Origin: Promethearchaeum sp.
Lineage (GTDB): Archaea; Asgardarchaeota; Lokiarchaeia; Sigyniarchaeales; Promethearchaeaceae
Reading direction: 5' to 3'
DNA length: 24,000 nucleotides
Assembly: GCA_030612265.1 (NCBI GenBank)
Contig: JAUWOE010000009.1
Span: 6,158-30,157, forward strand
A program made the position numbers and the translations under genes. The notes below the pieces were generated by a model. That model was not told the DNA's origin. It searched no databases and saw only the letters and a program-made list of their open reading frames with translations. This document shows positions 2 through 13,663 of this stretch, piece by piece (position 1 is the stretch's first letter; the number at the start of each line of letters is the position of its first letter).

Positions 2-544
2 AAAAGGTTTTATCGATTTCTTCATATCCCGATTCAGTCTGGAAGTAATAAAATATTAAAAAAAATGAAAAGAAATTATACGATTGAAGAAGCTGAAATA
101 ATTTTATTAAAATTGAAGGAATATGATAAATTGTTTAGAATTGGAACGGATATAATTGTTGGATTTCCTAGTGAATCAGAAGAAGATTTTGATCTATCAG
201 AAAATTTCATAAAAAAATGGAAACCTAGTATTTTAAATATATCAAAATATTCCGTAAGACCAAATACTGAAGCAAAAAAATATCATCAATTAAATTCCCA
301 AATTATAAAAAAGAGATCTAAGAAATTATCTATAGTTTTTTCTAATTACTCAGAAATTTTAAACAAAAAATGGGATGGATGGGAGGGTGATGTATTTTTT
401 AATGAACATCGAGAAAAGGTTCAATTTCCATATATGGGAAGAAATTTATATTACGTACCAGTATTAAGTAAAAATGCTGTTGTTGGACAAACAAAGAATA
501 TTAAAATTACTGGATATTTGAATCATTCCCTTATAGGTTATTAG
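2..544 (+). CDS. Radical-SAM methylthiotransferase (MiaB/MtaB, CDKAL1-like family), C-terminal part with TRAM-like domain; 5' end lies outside the window
   Basis: The frame is open from the window edge. Translation from nt 2 reads KRFYRFLHIPIQSGSNKILKKMKRNYT, matching the H-x-P-x-QSGS...L..M.R motif of this family. It continues ...IGTDIIVGFPSESEEDF and ends in a TRAM-like segment (WEGDVFF...GRNLYYVPV...GQTKNIKITG). Confidence 0.8.
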   Translation, partial: KRFYRFLHIPIQSGSNKILKKMKRNYTIEEAEIILLKLKEYDKLFRIGTDIIVGFPSESEEDFDLSENFIKKWKPSILNISKYSVRPNTEAKKYHQLNSQIIKKRSKKLSIVFSNYSEILNKKWDGWEGDVFFNEHREKVQFPYMGRNLYYVPVLSKNAVVGQTKNIKITGYLNHSLIGY

Positions 545-1559
545 TATTAAATAAAGGTTTAAGAATTTTTACATAATGGTCTCGAATTGAATATTCTGCT
601 ATTTTCATTGCATTTGAAGCAATTTTTTGAGTTAAAATTGATTTTGTTTCATAATCTTTTGCCAATAATTTATCTGCACAATAAACTGTTGCACTTGCTA
701 GAATAAAAGGGTTCCATGACCGTTTCCTTCCTTTATTAATGGTTTTTATTATAAATTTGCATTTATTTTCTAAAAGGTTTTTATAAACTATCATAGTCCA
801 AAGAGATTTTTTCTTTTGCATCCTATTTATAACTTCAGGTGAGTTTACAATCGAATTGATAAATCTTGCGATGAAATCTTCACTTTTATGAGGATGGTTT
901 TTCTTTTTTAGAAATTTCTGATATTCAATACTGTCTCTTATAATTAATCTTGGGCTAACTCTATGGCCCAACATGGTAAATATTTTGCATATTTCACGAA
1001 TACTAACTGGAGCATTAGAGCAAAATTCTCTCGAAGCATAAAAAATACAAAAACCAATTAATGAGATATGATTTCGAATGGATGGAGCTTTATGCTTAAT
1101 TGATTGATAATAATAGGCTGCATGATTCTTTACTATTGAAGATAGCCTTAAATATTTAGTTATATTATTTAATATTCTTAAAATTCTATAATCTGTTTCA
1201 TGATTTTTTATTTTTATTGGAAAAGTGTATGTTTTTAATTTTCTGAATTTCTTTTGATAATTTGATGAAATTACTTTATGTTTATAATCACTAAATACTT
1301 TTGTGGAGAAATAATCAATATGACTTCCTAGAGTACAAATATTATCAACAGTTTTTCCAATAGAAACAAATTGATCCCCTGTCGATAAATCTGAATTAAT
1401 TGTGTCATTAAATTGAAAGCTATCTACAAATAAAACAGAATCAATAACTAAACCGCAATTTACACAAACTCTTTCATGTCCATTTTGAATAAAATTAGCT
1501 TTACATTCTGGACAAATGTTTGAATTTTTCTGATTAATAAAATATTGGGATTGAAACAA
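531..1559 (-). CDS. tfb: Transcription initiation factor TFB (TFIIB-like), divergent paralogue
   Basis: N-terminal Zn ribbon CPEC-x12-CVNC followed by GLVIDS. Cyclin-fold-like repeats are present (NHAAYYYQSI...ISLIGFCIFYASREF...SIREICKIF). The only possible start is TTG at 1559, because an in-frame TGA lies three codons upstream and no later start precedes the Zn ribbon. Confidence 0.75.
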   Translation of the reverse strand: MFQSQYFINQKNSNICPECKANFIQNGHERVCVNCGLVIDSVLFVDSFQFNDTINSDLSTGDQFVSIGKTVDNICTLGSHIDYFSTKVFSDYKHKVISSNYQKKFRKLKTYTFPIKIKNHETDYRILRILNNITKYLRLSSIVKNHAAYYYQSIKHKAPSIRNHISLIGFCIFYASREFCSNAPVSIREICKIFTMLGHRVSPRLIIRDSIEYQKFLKKKNHPHKSEDFIARFINSIVNSPEVINRMQKKKSLWTMIVYKNLLENKCKFIIKTINKGRKRSWNPFILASATVYCADKLLAKDYETKSILTQKIASNAMKIAEYSIRDHYVKILKPLFNTNNL

Positions 1560-3378: not shown

Positions 3379-3861
3379 ATGAAAAATATCGAAGTTGATC
3401 CAATTAATTTCCAATTAAAAATAAAAAATTCACAACTCCCATTAGTTTTACTACGACCTTATGATCTATTTGAATTTCATTTGTTATTGCACACAAATAT
3501 AGAAGATTCATTATATAAAATTGGGAGTTTAATTGGAGATTTCCTTTGGACATCTTTAGAACCAAAATTAAAAAAGAAGAATTTTGAATCACAGATAAAA
3601 CATCTTATAGATTTATTGTATCAATTAGGTTTCGGAAAATTATTTTTTACGAAAAAAAAAGAAATTATTAATATTTCTATCAATTCCCTCATACTATGGA
3701 TTAAATATCCCTCAGATATTTCATTGAAATCAATTGCCAATTTCTATTTTGGTCTTATTCAATATTTTTTTAAAGAGAATAAAATAATTGATAAGGAAAA
3801 ATATGATATAAATCATGAGAAGAATAACTTTAAATTATATTTCCATATAAAGAAAGGATGA
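3379..3861 (+). CDS. V4R-like domain protein (cysteine-less variant)
   Basis: The pattern matches V4R: PLVLLRPYDLFEFHLLL...SLYKIGSLIGDFLWTSL...LIDLLYQLGFGKLFF...INISINS. It lacks the C-terminal Cys triad. Its stop overlaps the next start (ATGA at 3858-3861). Confidence 0.55.
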   Translation: MKNIEVDPINFQLKIKNSQLPLVLLRPYDLFEFHLLLHTNIEDSLYKIGSLIGDFLWTSLEPKLKKKNFESQIKHLIDLLYQLGFGKLFFTKKKEIINISINSLILWIKYPSDISLKSIANFYFGLIQYFFKENKIIDKEKYDINHEKNNFKLYFHIKKG

Positions 3862-4343
3862 AAATGAAAGAACTTATAAATAAAGATGACGGTTTATCTT
3901 TTTGTGAAGAAAATATTATCCTGGTCCCTGTGGATATCATTTCCTCCCTTGGATCAATTTTTAATACTGGCTCAAAACCTATTATTCAATATTTAGGAAA
4001 GAATTTTGGTAGATTTCTTGCTGAAAAATGTGATTCTCAATATGAAACTAAAGATCTTAAAAAATTTTCAAATAATTTTCTTAAAATGGCAAGTATAACA
4101 GGTTGGGGAAAGTTTACATTAATATTTTTGAATGATGAAGAAATAACAATAAAATTGTACAATAATATCGCAACTTTTAATAAACAAGAGAAAAAATTTA
4201 TCTGTTCTTATATTCTTGGACTTCTAAAAGGTTTCGGAGAATATATAATGAAAAATGTAAATGTATTAGAAACAAAGTGTTCAATTGAGAACCCTAACAA
4301 TCAATATTGTGAATTTCTGATAAAAAAAAAAATTAAACTATAG
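3858..4343 (+). CDS. V4R (4-vinyl reductase / TRAPP Bet3-like) domain protein
   Basis: Motifs: IILVPVDIISSLGSIF...IIQYLGKNFGRFLAEK...ITGWGKFTLIF...ITIKLYNN. The V4R Cys pattern is present as C116...ETKC141-x9-C151EF (CSYILGLLKGFGEY...ETKCSIENPNNQYCEFLI). Confidence 0.7.
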   Translation: MKMKELINKDDGLSFCEENIILVPVDIISSLGSIFNTGSKPIIQYLGKNFGRFLAEKCDSQYETKDLKKFSNNFLKMASITGWGKFTLIFLNDEEITIKLYNNIATFNKQEKKFICSYILGLLKGFGEYIMKNVNVLETKCSIENPNNQYCEFLIKKKIKL

Positions 4344-4350
4344 ATTTATT

Positions 4351-4725
4351 TTATATTAAATCCATTAATGTAAAAAAGAAATTTATTATTAATAACGTTA
4401 AACTCAAAATTTTAAAAATTTTTACTTGAATTTCGATTTCAATGATTATTCCAAGATATTCTAAAGAAACTTCAGTAATTCCTTGGAAATTTAGCATTAA
4501 ATCTAAAAAATAATTTATATTATATGAAATTTCTTCACTAATTTGAAAAATTAAAAGGGTACATCCAATTTCAATCATAAAGATCATCATTTTTGGAAGA
4601 AAATCTGGTAAAATTAGAATAAAAAAACTTAAAATCACTATTATTAAGAAAACAGATGTGATTAAAACGATTTTTTTGTCAGTTTCAAAAAAAAATATTG
4701 ATAGAAATTCAATATTTTGAATCAA
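4351..4725 (-). CDS. Small hydrophobic (about 3 TM) protein, last gene of the GTPase operon
   Basis: TTG start lies 6 nt after the mglA-like stop, with AGGT upstream. Hydrophobic segments include IVLITSVFLIIVILSFFILIL, MMIFMIEIGCTLLIF and ILSLTLLIINFFFTL. No homology recognised. Confidence 0.4.
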   Translation of the reverse strand: MIQNIEFLSIFFFETDKKIVLITSVFLIIVILSFFILILPDFLPKMMIFMIEIGCTLLIFQISEEISYNINYFLDLMLNFQGITEVSLEYLGIIIEIEIQVKIFKILSLTLLIINFFFTLMDLI

Positions 4726-4731
4726 TTTAAT

Positions 4732-5304
4732 CTACCTGATGATAATAGATGGAAAGATTAATGATATTATACTTTTGAATGTTTCTGTCACTCCTTTTCC
4801 TGAGAGTGCAATTGTTTCAATTATTTGGGATGTATTAAATTTATTTAACTCGTATTTGTTTAACACTTCATTAATATCTATAATATCGGGTAAATCTCTT
4901 TTATTTAAAGATAATACTATCGGGATTTTAAAAACATTTTCTGCAAAATAATAATTTAATTCTTTCCAAGATTGATAGTTATCATCAAAATATTTTCTTT
5001 GGGAATCTATAACAAAAACAATCCCATCAGTTCCAGATAAAGTAGCAGGTCTTGTAGATGCATAAAAATCTTGCCCAGTTGCAGAATATAATAAAATTTT
5101 TACCATCCATTCACCACCAATCATTTGTAATGTACCAAAATCAAAAAATAAAGTCCTCCCGGTTGTAGTTTCTATGGATGTAAGTTCTCCATTTTTTCCA
5201 AATTTATTAAATAAGCTTTTCAAACTAGTTGTTTTCCCTGATAAAGCACAGCCATAATATACAATTTTAATCTGGATCAATTTTGTTTTATAATTAACAA
5301 TCAT
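4732..5304 (-). CDS. mglA: MglA-family small Ras-like GTPase
   Basis: - N-terminus and G1: NYKTKLIQIKIVYYGCALSGKTT (compare MglA INY...KIVYYGPGLSGKTT).
- Switch I: GRTLFFDFG.
- G3: LLYSATGQDFY, with Ser in place of the canonical Asp as in MglA TVPGQ.
- G4: NKRDL. G5: ALSGKG.
- I prefer the ATG at 5304, which lies 4 nt after the upstream stop with GGGGT upstream. The ORF-track start at 5328 is a TTG. Confidence 0.85.
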   Translation of the reverse strand: MIVNYKTKLIQIKIVYYGCALSGKTTSLKSLFNKFGKNGELTSIETTTGRTLFFDFGTLQMIGGEWMVKILLYSATGQDFYASTRPATLSGTDGIVFVIDSQRKYFDDNYQSWKELNYYFAENVFKIPIVLSLNKRDLPDIIDINEVLNKYELNKFNTSQIIETIALSGKGVTETFKSIISLIFPSIIIR

Positions 5305-5308
5305 TTTT

Positions 5309-6208
5309 TTAACCCCATAGACTTTCAAACGTATCTGTAAAATTTGATGATTTTTTTGAATTCAAAAATGTCTTAAAATCCATATTCCATTCTTGCATTA
5401 TAAAATTTAAAATTCTTTCAATTGAAGATTGATTATATGCGATTGTAGAAAATAAAGTCTTACTAGAAATGTTTGTAGGATAACCTAAAACTTCTAAATT
5501 CTTCATACGAGATAAAATATTCAAAGTTCTTTTAGATGCCAAATAAAAATCCGATATTTCCTTTTTTATGATGTTTTCCTTTAATTCCATCTCTTCAAAA
5601 TAAAAATTCATTATATTTTCGTATTGTTCATTTAAAATTTTTTTTGTATTTATCCTTTTAGAGATAATTCTTTTCATTTTTTCAATTGCGACTTCCGTAT
5701 GATTTATTGCATTCTGATATAATGATTTTTCAAATGAAATATCCAATTTAATACCGTTATTCCCTTCTTTTATAGGTTTTAAAGTATTTTTATGAATATT
5801 GATGAGTAAGAATTGAGAACTTGCCCTATTTAAAACCTTAAATAATTTATTTAGAGTAGGTCTATTTTCGACATTATTAGTGCATCCAATAATCCAAAAA
5901 TTAAAATTGCTAAATAAGCTAATTGCTTTTTCTAAAGCAAAAGGATAACAGAGAAAAACATTTCTCTGAATTTCCATGTCATACTCTTCAGATTCAAGTA
6001 AATTATTATAATCATCAAGATCAACAAAATCTGTATAAAATATCATGATATTGCGGAATGATATTAGATTTGTTAATCCATTTATTATATTTTCCACATC
6101 TTCTTCATTTGAACTAATGATCACTATTGGGATCCTATCTAAAAGACAATGTAAGATTAATGCGATGTCTTCATTTTTTGAGCTTGTAAACAATTCAATT
6201 AGGTTCAT
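5309..6208 (-). CDS. Hypothetical protein between the Roadblock and MglA genes; N-terminal alpha/beta half with core-DENN-like motifs and a helical C-terminal half (assignment tentative)
   Basis: ATG with AAGGAGA Shine-Dalgarno upstream. It is tightly packed in the operon (17 nt after the Roadblock gene, 4 nt before mglA). ALILHCLLDRIPIVIISSNEEDVENIINGLTNLI resembles the DENN-core consensus LL-E-R-R-hhhh-SS-x-L-S-x-L-x(6)-L; YPFAL and FWIIGC follow later. Confidence 0.7.
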   Translation of the reverse strand: MNLIELFTSSKNEDIALILHCLLDRIPIVIISSNEEDVENIINGLTNLISFRNIMIFYTDFVDLDDYNNLLESEEYDMEIQRNVFLCYPFALEKAISLFSNFNFWIIGCTNNVENRPTLNKLFKVLNRASSQFLLINIHKNTLKPIKEGNNGIKLDISFEKSLYQNAINHTEVAIEKMKRIISKRINTKKILNEQYENIMNFYFEEMELKENIIKKEISDFYLASKRTLNILSRMKNLEVLGYPTNISSKTLFSTIAYNQSSIERILNFIMQEWNMDFKTFLNSKKSSNFTDTFESLWG

Positions 6209-6225: not shown

Positions 6226-7230
6226 TTAAAAAATTAATTCTGTAAACATCTTCTCTAAATTTAGATTTTCAGGATTTATTTCGTACTTTCGAGCTTCTTC
6301 CAATACAGTAGTAATTTTTTTACAGTATCTTGGTATGATTAACCGAAGTAAGCCTAGTTTCTGCCTCCCTTTACCAATTTCAATGGAAAATATATTTGAA
6401 TCAACCTTATTAATAAATTGAAATTTATCAACACATTCTAATAGGATTGAATTCACATGCATTTTTTTTAATAACCAAGCACATTTATCTGCTGTTTTAA
6501 AAAGTGAATACCCCATTGTAGCTTCAGAATCTAATTTATTTTGATCTATTTTTGATTGAGGATAGCTAGAAACAACAAAACCACCCTCAATTGAAATGTA
6601 AGATTTAATTAGGTCAAGGGTTTGATTACCAAGATCCCGTAGAATGTTATCTAATTCCAAATATATTCTTGGAGGGATATTTAAGGAAAATAATTGTATT
6701 TTTTCATTTTTTTTTATATCTTCTCTAACATCTGAGGCTCCGATAATTTCATCTATGTTTTTTTTTGAAAAATGCCGTAAAGGTGGTTTAAATGTTTCCC
6801 CAGAAAGAATCAGGGATTTTTTTATTTCAATTAAACTATTACGAGTTTTTAGAAATATCCCTCCTAAATTTATCATATTTTGAGCAGAGATAGCAATAAA
6901 GAAATCATTATCATTTCCTTGTAAACCCTGTGCTCGAATAATTTTGTTTAGAGTTGGACTCCCGTAATTCTTCAGTGGAAATAATAAAATTTTTCCTTTA
7001 TTCCCTTCAATTAAAATATATTTTAAATTTTGCTTATGAAGTTCAATTCCGCAATTATAAATAGCAGATGTAGCTGCAGATATACTGAAAATCTCATCTT
7101 TTGAAAACCAAATTCCAGTGTAATGAATTGGATTTCCATCTCTTTGCGTTAAAACAACATTTTCAACGCCTCTTGTAGCTTTTATTTTCTCAAGATTTCT
7201 CTTTACTTCATCTTGGAGTTTAATTATAAT
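6226..7230 (-). CDS. Tandem Roadblock/LC7 (MglB-like) protein; the true start is upstream of the ATG at 6876
   Basis: - The ORF-track product (6226-6876) contains a Roadblock domain (ISIEGGFVVSS...ATMGYSLFKTADKCAWLL...ILLECVDKFQFINKV...).
- The same frame stays open to 7230 and encodes a second complete Roadblock domain: IIIKLQDEVKRNLEKIKATRGVENVVLTQRDGNPIHYTG...EIFSISAATSAIYNCG...YILIEGNKGKILLFPL...FFIAISAQNMINLGG.
- The ATG at 6876 therefore falls inside that domain.
- GGGTGA (SD-like) and TTTAAATA (TATA-like) lie upstream of 7230. Confidence 0.7.
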   Translation of the reverse strand: MIIKLQDEVKRNLEKIKATRGVENVVLTQRDGNPIHYTGIWFSKDEIFSISAATSAIYNCGIELHKQNLKYILIEGNKGKILLFPLKNYGSPTLNKIIRAQGLQGNDNDFFIAISAQNMINLGGIFLKTRNSLIEIKKSLILSGETFKPPLRHFSKKNIDEIIGASDVREDIKKNEKIQLFSLNIPPRIYLELDNILRDLGNQTLDLIKSYISIEGGFVVSSYPQSKIDQNKLDSEATMGYSLFKTADKCAWLLKKMHVNSILLECVDKFQFINKVDSNIFSIEIGKGRQKLGLLRLIIPRYCKKITTVLEEARKYEINPENLNLEKMFTELIF

Positions 7231-7588
7231 TCACCCATTCGATTAATTGGTTAAAAAACTCCATAATTATATTTAAACATCTAAAAAAAAAACAAAAATT
7301 CTGAATTATGTTGAAAATTTAGATTATTTATTCCAAACAATAGATAAATGTGACGTTTTTAACTATATTTTAAAAATTTAAGCCTAAATTGAAACTTAAA
7401 GAAATAAAGTCTTATTTTAAATATCAACATTAATAAATTTTTTCCTTCTTATTCCTTCAGTTTGCAAAGATATTTCTAAAAATTTAAATGATATTGCGTT
7501 CCAATAATTTTATTTACTTTTCAATTGAAATATCAAAATTTAATAAGGAAGAAAACGCACTGACTTTTACACTCTAAGATTCGATATG

Positions 7589-7856: not shown

Positions 7857-9350
<1,494 letters not shown>

Positions 9351-9463
9351 ACAACATTTCTATGGGTTTAATGCCCATAGATCTTCTTTTTATTTTTTTT
9401 AGTTCTTTTCATATTTAATAAGATATAAATTTTCATTAGTATTTTCTATTTTTTTAATATATT

Positions 9464-9536
9464 GGGCCCATGGCTCAGTTGGTAGAGCACCTGACTTGCA
9501 CTCAGGGGGTCGGGGATTCAAATTCCCCTGGGTCCA
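9464..9536 (+). tRNA. tRNA-Ala (UGC)
   Basis: 73-nt cloverleaf: acceptor GGGCCCA/TGGGTCC with the G3:U70 Ala identity pair, anticodon loop CTTGCAC, T-loop TTCAAAT, discriminator A. No CCA is encoded. Confidence 0.95.
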
Positions 9537-9800
9537 TTAATTATAATATGATCCATTTCAAAAATAAGAAATATTAAGTAAGTGAGTTTTTGAAAATATG
9601 TACCAAAATTTTTTAATTATTTCAGAGAGTCTTAGAATTAGTATGTTTTTTCCACTTAAAATATCTGATTGGGATATGGAACAGTATAAATTAATACTGC
9701 AGCTATTTAGCATAGTTTTAATAGTTGTTATGTTGGTTTATATCGCTTTATCATCACGTGATAATGAATAAATGAATAAATAATTAAATTATTAGATTTA

Positions 9801-11039
9801 TTATTTTCCTTTTGAAGCAGAAACGATTCTAACAACATCTTGATTTTGTAAAATGTAAGATTCACCTAATCTCAATTTTGTTCTCCCATTTATTCCATAA
9901 ATAAAGTTTTTTGCTAAATTGGAATGGATTTTTTCATCCACAAATTCTTTTAATTTAGTTCCACTTGTAATAAGATGTGCATCTGGCAACACATTTCCAT
10001 CTTTATCAGAATATGTATTTAGATCATATACTGGATAAACTACAATTTGTTTTAAAACATCAAAGACTGAATAATTTATTATTTTCTGAATTCCTGAACT
10101 ACCAAATTTTTTTAATATTTTTTCTTCAATATTTTGAAGAGCATCTAATTCTTGAGCAGACAAACTTTTTTTATCTAATATCTTGAAATGTGAATCCCCT
10201 GGAAAATATTCAATAATTCCTTTTTCCGCAAATTTTCTTAACCATAATTCTGTTAAAGCACTACATGGAATAGTATTTTTATAAATCTTAGATAATTTTT
10301 TAAAAATTTCTTCACCATTCGGTTTATCTACCTTATTTGCGATAATAATAATTGGTTTTGAAATTTCGCGAAGTTTCGTAGCAAAATGTAAGACATCATT
10401 CTCCTTCCATACTGTTAAATGCTCAAAATCTAAATTAGATGCTTTCATTGCTAAATATATATGATCTTTTCTTACAGAAATCCCTGCCATTCGGTCATAG
10501 AAGACATCAACAAAGCTTAATTTTTCTTGTTCAATTTTGCGTACAAATTTCTGCCAATCCTTTCTTATAAGAATATCTCTAAACCAATAATTTATTTCCT
10601 TCTCTAAAAACTTAATATCTTCAAGTGGATCCCTCGAACCTTCATCAATTTCTTGACCTTCAGCGTCCAAACTTCCAGAAATATCAATCACATGTAATAA
10701 TACATCTGCTCGTGATAAATCAGAAAGAAATTTATTTCCCATCCCTTTTCCGATATGAGCATCTGGAACTAAACCTGCAACGTCTAAAAATTTAACTGGA
10801 ATAAACCTAATGCCATTTTTACAAATCGAATTTTTAGGATTATCTTTTACATTTAATTCTTTACATATACAATCTATTCGAATAAAACCTTTTCCCAAGT
10901 TCGGCTCAATTGTTGTAAAAGGATAATTTCCCACTTTAGCTTCAGTTAAACAAGCAGAATTTAAAAAAGTACTTTTACCTGATGATGGCTTTCCGACTAT
11001 TCCAATCAACATATGGTAAAATATTTTATTAAAACTCAT
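9801..11039 (-). CDS. OBG-family GTPase/ATPase (YchF/DRG-like) with C-terminal TGS domain
   Basis: Motifs: IGIVGKPSSGKSTFLN (G1), NYPFTTIEPNLG (switch I), LDVAGLV (G3), ANKVD (G4), and C-terminal LRLGESYILQNQDVVRIVSA (TGS-like). An alternative start at the ATG at 11012 (MLIGIVGKP) is equally plausible. Confidence 0.85.
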   Translation of the reverse strand: MSFNKIFYHMLIGIVGKPSSGKSTFLNSACLTEAKVGNYPFTTIEPNLGKGFIRIDCICKELNVKDNPKNSICKNGIRFIPVKFLDVAGLVPDAHIGKGMGNKFLSDLSRADVLLHVIDISGSLDAEGQEIDEGSRDPLEDIKFLEKEINYWFRDILIRKDWQKFVRKIEQEKLSFVDVFYDRMAGISVRKDHIYLAMKASNLDFEHLTVWKENDVLHFATKLREISKPIIIIANKVDKPNGEEIFKKLSKIYKNTIPCSALTELWLRKFAEKGIIEYFPGDSHFKILDKKSLSAQELDALQNIEEKILKKFGSSGIQKIINYSVFDVLKQIVVYPVYDLNTYSDKDGNVLPDAHLITSGTKLKEFVDEKIHSNLAKNFIYGINGRTKLRLGESYILQNQDVVRIVSASKGK

Positions 11040-11080: not shown

Positions 11081-13663
11081 TTAGTACGTCTGAGAATTCT
11101 CTTGGATAAGAAGTTTTTGGATTTCGCTTTCAATTTTGGCAAATACTGTCATTAAATTATCACGTTCAAAATTATTATCGTTTTTAATTGTAGTTCTCAC
11201 TATATTTAATTTATTTATTTTTCTATAGAACTCATTTAATTCTTTTTTAAATGATTGAGCCTCAGCTGTAATTAGCTTTCTATTTTCTTTTAATTCTTCC
11301 GAATTGTCGATATAAAAGGCCATATATCTCGTTTTATTTGATTTTAATCTATTTATGAAATTTCTAGCTAAATTAATAATTTCTTTAGGCATTTCTCTCG
11401 CAGAATATTTTTTCTTGTCATACAAAATTACAAATTCTAAGAGTTCTTTATTTCCTCTAGCCCAATTAGACTCAATTTCAAATATATATATATATATTTG
11501 ATAATTCTCAATTGAAACATTCATTTCACCCATATTAACATCCAAATACTTGGGAATTTGCCTTTCAATTTCTTCATTAACAATAGTAGAACCAATCTGA
11601 TAATATTTTTCTGGTCCGATTATTCTATGAAAATAATAAAAACTTACATCAAACATTCCATTTTGATTATCAGATTTCGTTTTTTGCTCGTACTTATTTT
11701 TCTCCTCTTTTCTTACGTCTATTTCATTGAGATTCTTTGAAGATTTATTCGTCAATTCTTTAAATTCATTAAAAATGTTCTTAAGATTATCCAAAGAAAA
11801 TAAAGCTTCGTGTGAAGTAATTGTCTTGGTCTTATTATATTTATCTATTAGTTTTATAAAGAATGAAGTGTTTTTACATAAAATTGAGTATTTCCAATAG
11901 AAATCTTTAGAAATTTTTTCATAAAAATTTATTATATTGCTAAATTCAGGGATTTTAAGGAAATTTCGATATTTTTGAACTAATTCTTTAAATGTCTGAA
12001 TGATTTCTCTTACACTTTGTTCATATTTTTCCTCTTTATTCAATTTTTCAGCTTCTTTTATCAAACTCTCAATTCTATTATTAATTATTTGAAGAGGAGA
12101 TGAACATACTTTATGTTTAATAACTTCTATAGGATCATTTGTTATATAATCTGCTTTCGATTCTTTTATTTTTCGATTATTTACTTTTTTCAAATTTTTA
12201 GTCCCTCTTTTTAATAATTTTATATTATTTGTATTTTTAATTTTTAACAAAAAAGCATCAGGAATTGAGTCAATTTTTGCTAAACAATACCCTGTTATTA
12301 GTTCATTGGCCTTTAATGGAAAATTACTTTGAAATCCAAGAAAATGAATAACGTCTTCATTTTTTTCATTAAATTTAAAAAAAAATTTAGATCCAGAATT
12401 TCTAATAATGTTTTTACTTATATCCAAAGTTGTGGTTAAAGTTATCAGAGCTTCCCCTTTACCACGAAGAAGCATCGCTATATCTTCTAAATATGTCGAA
12501 ATCTTTGTAGTTTCTAACATCTTTTTTGATGCAATATAAGAAGCATCTTCAAAGATTGTTAAGTGCTCTAATTCGTTTGTAGGTCTTTTTTTCATATTAT
12601 ATTCCCAAATCCATTTTAAAACTAAATTCGCAAAAAAAATCACATCTTCTTTTGAACCACCTAAATTTAAAATGTTCCCTAAATCGATTATGCAATTTTT
12701 CTTCAATAAATCAGATATTTTTTTTGTTTTTGAAGAAAAGTTAAAGAGACTTTTTAGTGGACCATCATAATACCTCCTTAATCGATTAGTTATACTAATA
12801 ATTGTTTGATTTAATTGTGGGATATCGTTTTTTTTTTTTTCAGTATAGATTTTAAGGATTTTAAAGAAATAATCCCAAGACTGCATTTTTTTATTAGAGC
12901 ATACTATTCTTAATGTATCAATTAGAACTTTTTCCATCTGAGGAGAGAAATCGCTATTGGATTCTATGATTTGACAAGATTTTAAAGCATCAAATAAGAT
13001 CTCAACATAATTATCTTCTGGGAAAATGTCATTATCAAATGGATTAAAGTAAAAATTTAATCCAGGTCGAATAACGTTGATGGATTTCACATCTTTCATA
13101 AGCTCCTTATATTCACCTTTAAATTCAAATAAAATAAAAGGAATATTTGGATATTTCTTTTCAAACTGATGAAGGAAATTATTAAGAAGAGTAGTTTTAC
13201 CCGTTCCAGTTTGACCATAAATTATTATATGTCTTTTCAAATCTTCGATATTGAGTTTAAACTTCTTAAGAATTTCCCGATTATAAAAAATTGTTCCTAA
13301 ATTTATAGTCCCTTTACTATAATTCTTAAAATCTGGTTTTTCAAGCTCTATTGAAGGAATTTTTTTTTGTTTTAGAATTATTTTTAATATTAAATTATAT
13401 AAAAAAATAATAATTGTAAAAATTGTTAACAAAAAATCAATTTTTAAGAGATTAAAAAATTTTAAACTCCAAAATATTAATGAGAAAAGAAACGCAATCT
13501 GATATATCATAAAAATTTCTTTTATTCTTATCAGAAATCGACTTTGAAGTGAACAATGCTGAGCAATTAAAAGGAAAATTCCTATTAGATCTGTCAAAAT
13601 AGAAAAAATGTACCAAAGATCTCCCCTGAAAATTAGAATATAAATAATTGGTATATTTTCCAT
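11081..13663 (-). CDS. Membrane-anchored HerA/FtsK-superfamily (DUF87-like) P-loop ATPase with a long coiled-coil and a longin-like C-terminal extension
   Basis: - ATG with AGGAAGGT upstream.
- About 3-4 N-terminal TM helices (IFSILTDLIGIFLLIA, IAFLFSLIFWSL, LLTIFTIIIFLYNLILKII).
- GTINLGTIF...LKRHIIIYGQTGTGKTTLLNNFL (Walker A) and HLTIFEDASYIA (Walker B-like).
- The C-terminal ~350 aa are helical, followed by the FYYFHRIIGPEKYY...IYIYIFEIESNWARGNKELLEFVILYD module. Confidence 0.8.
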   Translation of the reverse strand: MENIPIIYILIFRGDLWYIFSILTDLIGIFLLIAQHCSLQSRFLIRIKEIFMIYQIAFLFSLIFWSLKFFNLLKIDFLLTIFTIIIFLYNLILKIILKQKKIPSIELEKPDFKNYSKGTINLGTIFYNREILKKFKLNIEDLKRHIIIYGQTGTGKTTLLNNFLHQFEKKYPNIPFILFEFKGEYKELMKDVKSINVIRPGLNFYFNPFDNDIFPEDNYVEILFDALKSCQIIESNSDFSPQMEKVLIDTLRIVCSNKKMQSWDYFFKILKIYTEKKKNDIPQLNQTIISITNRLRRYYDGPLKSLFNFSSKTKKISDLLKKNCIIDLGNILNLGGSKEDVIFFANLVLKWIWEYNMKKRPTNELEHLTIFEDASYIASKKMLETTKISTYLEDIAMLLRGKGEALITLTTTLDISKNIIRNSGSKFFFKFNEKNEDVIHFLGFQSNFPLKANELITGYCLAKIDSIPDAFLLKIKNTNNIKLLKRGTKNLKKVNNRKIKESKADYITNDPIEVIKHKVCSSPLQIINNRIESLIKEAEKLNKEEKYEQSVREIIQTFKELVQKYRNFLKIPEFSNIINFYEKISKDFYWKYSILCKNTSFFIKLIDKYNKTKTITSHEALFSLDNLKNIFNEFKELTNKSSKNLNEIDVRKEEKNKYEQKTKSDNQNGMFDVSFYYFHRIIGPEKYYQIGSTIVNEEIERQIPKYLDVNMGEMNVSIENYQIYIYIFEIESNWARGNKELLEFVILYDKKKYSAREMPKEIINLARNFINRLKSNKTRYMAFYIDNSEELKENRKLITAEAQSFKKELNEFYRKINKLNIVRTTIKNDNNFERDNLMTVFAKIESEIQKLLIQENSQTY
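11482..11497. repeat. (AT)8 dinucleotide repeat inside the ATPase CDS
   Basis: Read directly: atatatatatatatat. It encodes IYIYI on the minus strand. Confidence 0.9.
12828..12840. repeat. T13 (A13 on the coding strand) homopolymer inside the ATPase CDS
   Basis: Read directly: 13 consecutive T. It encodes the Lys run in EKKKND on the minus strand. Confidence 0.9.

Follow-up and report, generated by a model that had tools for sequence, protein, structure and literature searches.

The 24,000-nucleotide stretch of Promethearchaeum sp. DNA analysed here (contig JAUWOE010000009.1, positions 6,158 to 30,157; hereafter the window, G+C ~26%) contains a tight three-gene unit on the minus strand, which encodes a tandem Roadblock protein, a DENN-like protein of 299 amino acids (aa) and an MglA-type small GTPase. 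The proteins of this region are 84–91% identical to their orthologues in P. syntrophicum MK-D1. The middle gene is our main subject; an original prediction, made from the DNA letters, had proposed that its product is a core-DENN-like protein encoded between a Roadblock gene and an MglA gene. The unit and the parts of the DENN-like protein are arranged as follows, each with the evidence that defines it.

6226–7230, minus strand: gene of a 334-aa tandem Roadblock (MglB/LAMTOR-like) protein; open frame, Pfam, homologues, AlphaFold2 model and Foldseek.
5309–6208, minus strand: gene of the 299-aa DENN-like protein, stop codon included; open reading frame (ORF), homologues, AlphaFold2 model and Foldseek.
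5759–6208, minus strand: predicted cDENN-like α/β lobe of this protein, residues 1–150; DSSP on the model and co-linear alignments to the folliculin C-terminal domain and to the DENND1B cDENN, the latter not significant.
5357–5737, minus strand: predicted dDENN-like all-helical lobe, residues 158–284; helices in the model and the Foldseek alignment to 3tw8.
5312–5356, minus strand: C-terminal tail, residues 285–299, ending in FTDTFESLWG; alignment A1 and model confidence.
4732–5304, minus strand: gene of a small GTPase of the MglA type, whose product has 190 aa if translation starts at the ATG at 5304; phmmer, motifs and homologue length.

The ORF at 5309–6208 is a real, conserved gene of Asgard archaea, and a chance reading frame is ruled out because the sequence is strongly conserved. 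A word-indexed search returned 33 homologues of its product, and HMMER, run in full over 1.84 billion proteins, returned 100 cluster representatives; nearly all are ~300 aa long, and every named one in both searches belongs to an Asgard archaeon. All public database names for the family are 'hypothetical' or 'uncharacterized', including that of MK-D1 DSAG12_00674 (UniProt A0A5B9D6W1). The motifs quoted in the original prediction were all located in the 299-aa translation: ALILHCLLDRIPIVIISSNEEDVENIINGLTNLI occupies residues 16–49 (6062–6163), YPF residues 88–90 and FWIIGC residues 104–109. The N-terminal lobe accordingly holds the LILHCLLDRIPIVIISS...GLTNLI block, an invariant R52, YPF and FWIIGC. 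The best-conserved stretch of the whole family is the nearly invariant decapeptide FTDTFESLWG (5312–5341, minus strand), in which residues D292, S296, W298 and G299 are invariant in alignment A1.

We modelled the DENN-like protein with AlphaFold2 from an alignment of 27 homologues, and the resulting model has a predicted local distance difference test score (pLDDT) of 89.5 and a predicted template modelling score (pTM) of 0.86. The N-terminal half contains strands at residues 28–32, 53–57, 83–87, 105–110, 132–139 and 142–149 with helices between them, as assigned by DSSP, and residues 158–294 are modelled as helices throughout (158–183, 193–199, 203–240, 249–256 and 263–274). This arrangement agrees with the alternating β/α segments and the all-helical second half that had been read from the sequence. 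The absence of an N-terminal longin (uDENN) lobe, also proposed at that stage, is borne out by the model and by the family length of ~300 aa: only ~27 residues precede the first cDENN strand, and no DENN or longin extension turned up when ten family members that are long or distant were scanned for Pfam domains. Residues 285–299 have a pLDDT <50 and are disordered in the monomer model; a tail that is disordered and still nearly invariant is probably a peptide that docks onto a partner.

A Foldseek search of the model against 350,542 PDB chains placed DENND1B (3tw8 chains C and A) and DENND1A (6ekk chain B) at ranks 1–3, with a probability of 1.00 and a root-mean-square deviation (r.m.s.d.) of ~7 Å; the alignment to 3tw8 spans 278 columns, and up to 281 columns are reached among the top three. 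C9orf72-SMCR8 is found at rank 25, and folliculin is not within the top 50 PDB matches. In the description of Zhang et al. (2012, PMC3521125), cDENN is a five-stranded α/β sandwich with a minimal P-loop topology that lacks nucleotide-binding residues, and it is followed by the all-α dDENN. The DENN-like protein is predicted to adopt this two-lobed cDENN + dDENN fold, at a modest E-value and TM-score, in keeping with the original prediction, which had named DENND1B (3TW8) as a structure to compare; DENND1B ranks first in the PDB. Specifically, the Asgard protein resembles its best structural matches, DENND1A and DENND1B (3TW8, 6EKK; guanine nucleotide exchange factors (GEFs) of Rab35), in having an α/β cDENN before a helical dDENN, and the order of motifs (h-h-h-S-S strand, helix, Y/C-x-P, h-h-G strand, hairpin) is co-linear between them. 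Unlike them, it has no uDENN/longin lobe, contains one extra strand–helix unit in the α/β lobe, carries an added C-terminal peptide and has an MglA-type partner instead of a Rab, while sequence similarity stays at background (P = 0.13).

Sequence similarity to the Asgard protein is detectable for a single DENN family, the C-terminal DENN domain of folliculin (PF16692; 3V42, 6NZD, 6ULG), and lies in the first helix–strand–helix. Folliculin_C of Pfam was matched by 3/49 diverse family members, with a best E of 4.8e-4, a similarity that falls short of the Pfam threshold. We rebuilt the folliculin C-terminal alignment from verified metazoan FLCN sequences, and hhalign of the Asgard family profile against it gave P = 5.6e-4 over 49 columns, with Asgard residues 2–50 placed on the beginning of the DENN domain of folliculin; the same comparison with a single folliculin sequence was uninformative, so that a real alignment is needed. 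Additionally, a hidden Markov model (HMM) of the folliculin domain scored the Helarchaeota relative P0039 at 20.1 bits over residues 5–64 (per-sequence P = 1.8e-8), against a best score of 4.1 bits among reversed-sequence controls. These data point to a weakly significant, co-linear match to the folliculin C-terminal DENN domain. Ferritin and the TNIK kinase, which appeared in phmmer and profile searches of PDB sequences with E ~0.002–0.1, were rejected as spurious, compositional matches to helical segments.

The gene upstream of the DENN-like gene, which had been said to encode two Roadblock domains, does so after extension to 6226–7230; the claim does not hold for the ORF as listed (216 aa, 6226–6876), which is cut short. 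Beyond that ORF the frame is open as far as 7230, with no ATG, GTG or TTG, and its start codon is probably ATT or ATA at 7222–7230, where the triplets ATT-ATA-ATT (minus strand) are preceded by GGGTGA, a Shine-Dalgarno-like site; where MK-D1 has ATG, the window reads AAA (within 7218–7236, minus strand). In several close relatives the Roadblock gene is likewise called in an N-terminally truncated form (e.g. 216 or 266 aa), and the non-canonical start therefore seems real and not an assembly error. The product matches Pfam Robl_LC7 (PF03259) at 27.4 bits (cutoff 23), and it matches homologues of ~333 aa end to end (377 hits). In the AlphaFold2 model the 334-aa protein forms two Roadblock domains, residues 5–143 and 187–318, both with the α-β-β-α-β-β-β-α Roadblock fold, and the top Foldseek matches are LAMTOR2, MglB and Roadblock3 of MK-D1 (TMt 0.8). 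The gene ends 17 nt before the start of the DENN-like gene.

On the other side, the likely ATG of the GTPase gene follows the stop codon of the DENN-like gene at a distance of 4 nt, in agreement with the 190-aa length of its homologues; the listed ORF reaches further, to a TTG at 5328. By its sequence the product is clearly of the MglA type, as had been proposed: phmmer matched it to four MglA structures from M. xanthus and T. thermophilus with E = 1e-32, versus 1e-7 for Arf/Rab. Its motifs comprise the P-loop GCALSGKT, a switch-I TGRTLFFDF with an intrinsic arginine, SATGQ in the place of DxxGQ, and NKRD. TGRTLFFDF and SATGQ align to TDRTLFFDF and TVPGQ of MglA, with S/T replacing the Asp of DxxGQ. 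Directly after the GTPase gene and on the same strand lies a 124-aa ORF (4351–4725), which is very hydrophobic by eye and whose product probably spans the membrane. MK-D1 has a counterpart with 65% identity, and none was detected in the other lineages of related loci; the unit could have here a fourth gene that is specific to the lineage. A second small GTPase (228 aa, Arf/Ras-type, ~36% identical to the MglA-type protein) is encoded ~0.7 kb downstream on the opposite strand in loci of a distant clade (L003, L004, L010–L021, L023–L026) and is absent from the clade of the window.

All 27 related Asgard loci (27/27), which come from 23 species-level genomes, carry the Roadblock, DENN-like and GTPase genes in this order and on a single strand, with intergenic gaps of 2–20 nt; the immediate neighbours named in the original prediction are present in all of them. 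These loci span Promethearchaeum, Lokiarchaeum (L. ossiferum), Harpocratesius and metagenome-assembled genomes labelled Hermod-, Thor-, Hod- and Hel-archaeota. A published operon (Liu et al., bioRxiv 10.1101/2020.10.19.343400, and Nature 2021), conserved in most Asgard archaea, combines a Roadblock-superfamily (LAMTOR1-like) protein with a small GTPase and a protein that has a DENN domain; its authors proposed a GEF function for it and likened it to folliculin and Ragulator. Our unit has in common with that operon the three components, their grouping in a putative operon, the spread across Asgard lineages and the proposed GEF role; it differs in that the GTPase is called Rab-like there and is MglA-type here, and the two are matched by description and not by accession. 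The three-gene unit thus matches an operon that is already published, with family identity taken from the published description, and the basic conclusion is not new. Later papers count DENN domains among the known Asgard eukaryote-like proteins, and another notes DENN folds in prokaryotes. Because of these reports and the 2020 preprint, the premise that an operon-encoded prokaryotic DENN protein would be a novelty is outdated. Taken as a whole, the earlier interpretation is partly supported: it was right on fold and context, is unproven on the split-module mechanism and was wrong on novelty.

The fold prediction, the identity of the neighbours and the synteny together form the basis on which we infer complex formation and GEF activity for the three products. 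We consider it slightly better than an even chance that the middle gene encodes a stand-alone cDENN + dDENN module and that the three products form one switch. It is likely that the DENN-like protein acts with the Roadblock protein as a regulator of the MglA switch, either as an exchange factor or as a scaffold. In such a switch, the tandem Roadblock protein would form an intramolecular pseudo-dimer equivalent to the MglB dimer, serve as GTPase platform and GTPase-activating protein (GAP), and fill the place of the longin (uDENN) lobe of eukaryotic DENN modules. The DENN-like protein may bind the GTPase beside the Roadblock protein and either promote nucleotide exchange, as DENND1 does for Rab35, or stabilize one nucleotide state as a clamp, while its invariant FTDTFESLWG tail would dock onto a partner. 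The idea of a split longin/Roadblock plus DENN complex, also raised in the original prediction, has the synteny in its favour and is unproven.

The nearest prokaryotic parallel is the MglA-MglB polarity switch of bacteria and archaea, which likewise combines an MglA-type GTPase bearing an intrinsic arginine with the adjacent gene of a Roadblock-fold partner. It differs from the Asgard unit in that the Asgard Roadblock partner is a single two-domain chain and not a homodimer, and in that a DENN-like gene lies in between. We know of no DENN-like third component in bacterial mglBA operons.

Several observations weigh against the proposed exchange-factor switch, some bearing on the DENN assignment and others on the function. 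The Foldseek scores are modest (E = 2.8e-3, TM-score 0.40/0.34), and a viral structure library, which has no DENN targets, gives a similar E-value for an unrelated protein. That viral match has a probability of 0.33 and an r.m.s.d. of 22 Å, and the library returned low-probability ATPases only; because of the similar E-value, the DENN call rests on rank, probability and alignment quality and not on the E-value. The DENN-like protein itself has no Pfam (E <= 1), NCBIfam or PDB sequence match, the reciprocal HMM search with folliculin is weak (4.2 bits), and hhalign against the two DENND1A/B sequences stays at background. The latter alignment is nonetheless co-linear and falls in the register that the original prediction had suggested for the DENND1 cDENN motifs, so the proposed motif order stands while its significance from sequence alone does not. 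Regarding function, GAP and GEF-like effects have both been ascribed to MglB by itself in Myxococcus. Moreover, the DENN domains of FLCN-FNIP and C9orf72-SMCR8 are structural and their longin domains are catalytic, so that a DENN fold does not imply GEF activity.

The last point leads to the main rival, in which the DENN-like fold is correct and the protein is a non-catalytic scaffold or a subunit of a GAP complex: the Roadblock protein would perform the catalysis-related work on MglA, and the DENN-like protein would dimerize, localize or gate it. FLCN-FNIP resembles the Asgard unit in its association, through Ragulator and Rag, with proteins of the Roadblock fold and with a small GTPase. The sequence affinity to the folliculin C-terminal domain rather than to DENND1 is in line with a scaffold, as are the GTPase's own arginine, the likeness of the tandem Roadblock protein to the GAP MglB and the longin GAP literature. 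Folliculin differs from the Asgard protein in that it is a GAP of RagC/D and has its own longin domain, where the catalytic arginine is located. The best fold matches, by contrast, are the DENND1 structures, and Liu et al. favour a GEF role (bioRxiv 10.1101/2020.10.19.343400). We regard the scaffold role as possible but rather unlikely; the two remaining rivals are less likely still.

One of these holds that the protein is a degenerate P-loop/AAA+-like protein with an α/β domain and a helical lid, like the clamp-loader delta subunit, and that its DENN likeness arose by convergence. From PDB rank 4 onward the Foldseek matches are indeed clamp-loader, MCM, PilT and other P-loop ATPases, and P-loop ATPases take all top ranks in the viral library search, the E-values of these matches being 0.004–0.2. 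These ATPase matches mostly have probabilities of 0.1–0.6 and full-length alignments with an r.m.s.d. of 16–24 Å, against 1.00 and 7 Å for DENND1B at the same length. Such a background is expected, because the topology of cDENN itself is that of a minimal P-loop domain (PMC3521125). In addition, neither Walker A nor Walker B was found in any member of the family in our alignment: the site corresponding to Walker A (GxxxxGK[ST], behind strand 1) has the sequence PIVIISSNEEDVE and that corresponding to Walker B (behind strand 3) has NVFLCYPF, without conservation of either motif. We therefore rejected an active NTPase, and the weak but controlled sequence link to the folliculin C-terminal domain further argues against convergence, which we consider very unlikely.

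The third rival concerns the genomic surroundings of the unit, which include one further feature.

7857–9351, plus strand: archaeal 16S rRNA gene, divergent from the operon; Rfam 1465 bits.

The 16S gene of the window and that of Promethearchaeum syntrophicum MK-D1 share 99.1% identity; together with the protein identities, this marks the source of the window as a close relative of that cultured lokiarchaeon. In all related loci whose flanking sequence reaches far enough (L001, L003, L005, L006, L008–L011, L016, L019, L022, L025 and L026), a divergent 16S gene is found ~0.6 kb upstream of the Roadblock gene; most of the other related contigs stop <700 nt upstream, which is what assembly breaks in rRNA would produce. 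The adjacency is a deeply conserved gene order, and a functional link with the unit is conjectural. Together with the YGR210/Obg-like GTPase gene on the other side, it could be taken to place the DENN-like protein in ribosome or rRNA biology, apart from the neighbouring GTPase; we find this highly improbable, as gaps of 4–17 nt and the invariant co-occurrence with the Roadblock and GTPase genes argue for a function shared with them, and the rRNA adjacency may be frozen gene order only.

Beyond the 16S gene, the window contains tRNA-Ala(TGC) at 9463–9537 (plus strand) and no 23S gene, and 16S and 23S therefore appear unlinked. The YGR210/Obg-like GTPase gene at 9801–11039 and the gene of an 860-aa HerA/DUF87-type ATPase at 11081–13663, both on the minus strand, come next, and the order 16S, tRNA-Ala, Obg-like GTPase, HerA-type ATPase is common to Harpocratesius (L001). 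On the downstream side of the unit, two overlapping tandem genes of ~160 aa at 3379–3861 and 3858–4343 (plus strand) run convergently towards the operon, the second giving a weak V4R match, and among the loci examined they are common only to MK-D1. Further downstream lies a TFB-like gene (531–1559, minus strand) with a zinc ribbon and a weak TFIIB repeat, whose position is kept in nearly all related loci at 44–63% identity.

Four features are added here to the published description of the operon: the MglA type of the GTPase, which fits the 2012 proposal of Zhang et al. that DENN inherited its longin lobe from Roadblock proteins of the MglB type, the partners of MglA (PMC3521125); the tandem pseudo-dimer Roadblock partner with its non-canonical start codon; the invariant C-terminal peptide of the DENN-like protein; and the position of the unit beside the 16S rRNA gene wherever the flank allows a check. 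None of them alters the basic published conclusion. More speculatively, the unit may be a surviving intermediate on the way to the eukaryotic tripartite DENN module, in which a cDENN-dDENN was inserted into an archaeal mglB-mglA operon, the Roadblock protein supplies in trans the longin lobe that was fused later, and the fixed 16S-divergent position reflects co-regulation with ribosome synthesis; we hold this to be unlikely. If true, it would make the unit a prokaryotic forerunner of the link between Ragulator/folliculin-Rag and growth control.

In eukaryotes, membrane traffic and nutrient signalling depend on small-GTPase regulators of the DENN, longin and Roadblock types. The archaeal three-gene version may offer a simple system for how such GTPase modules worked before eukaryotes, and the cultured strain MK-D1 carries the unit, as DSAG12_00674 and its neighbours.
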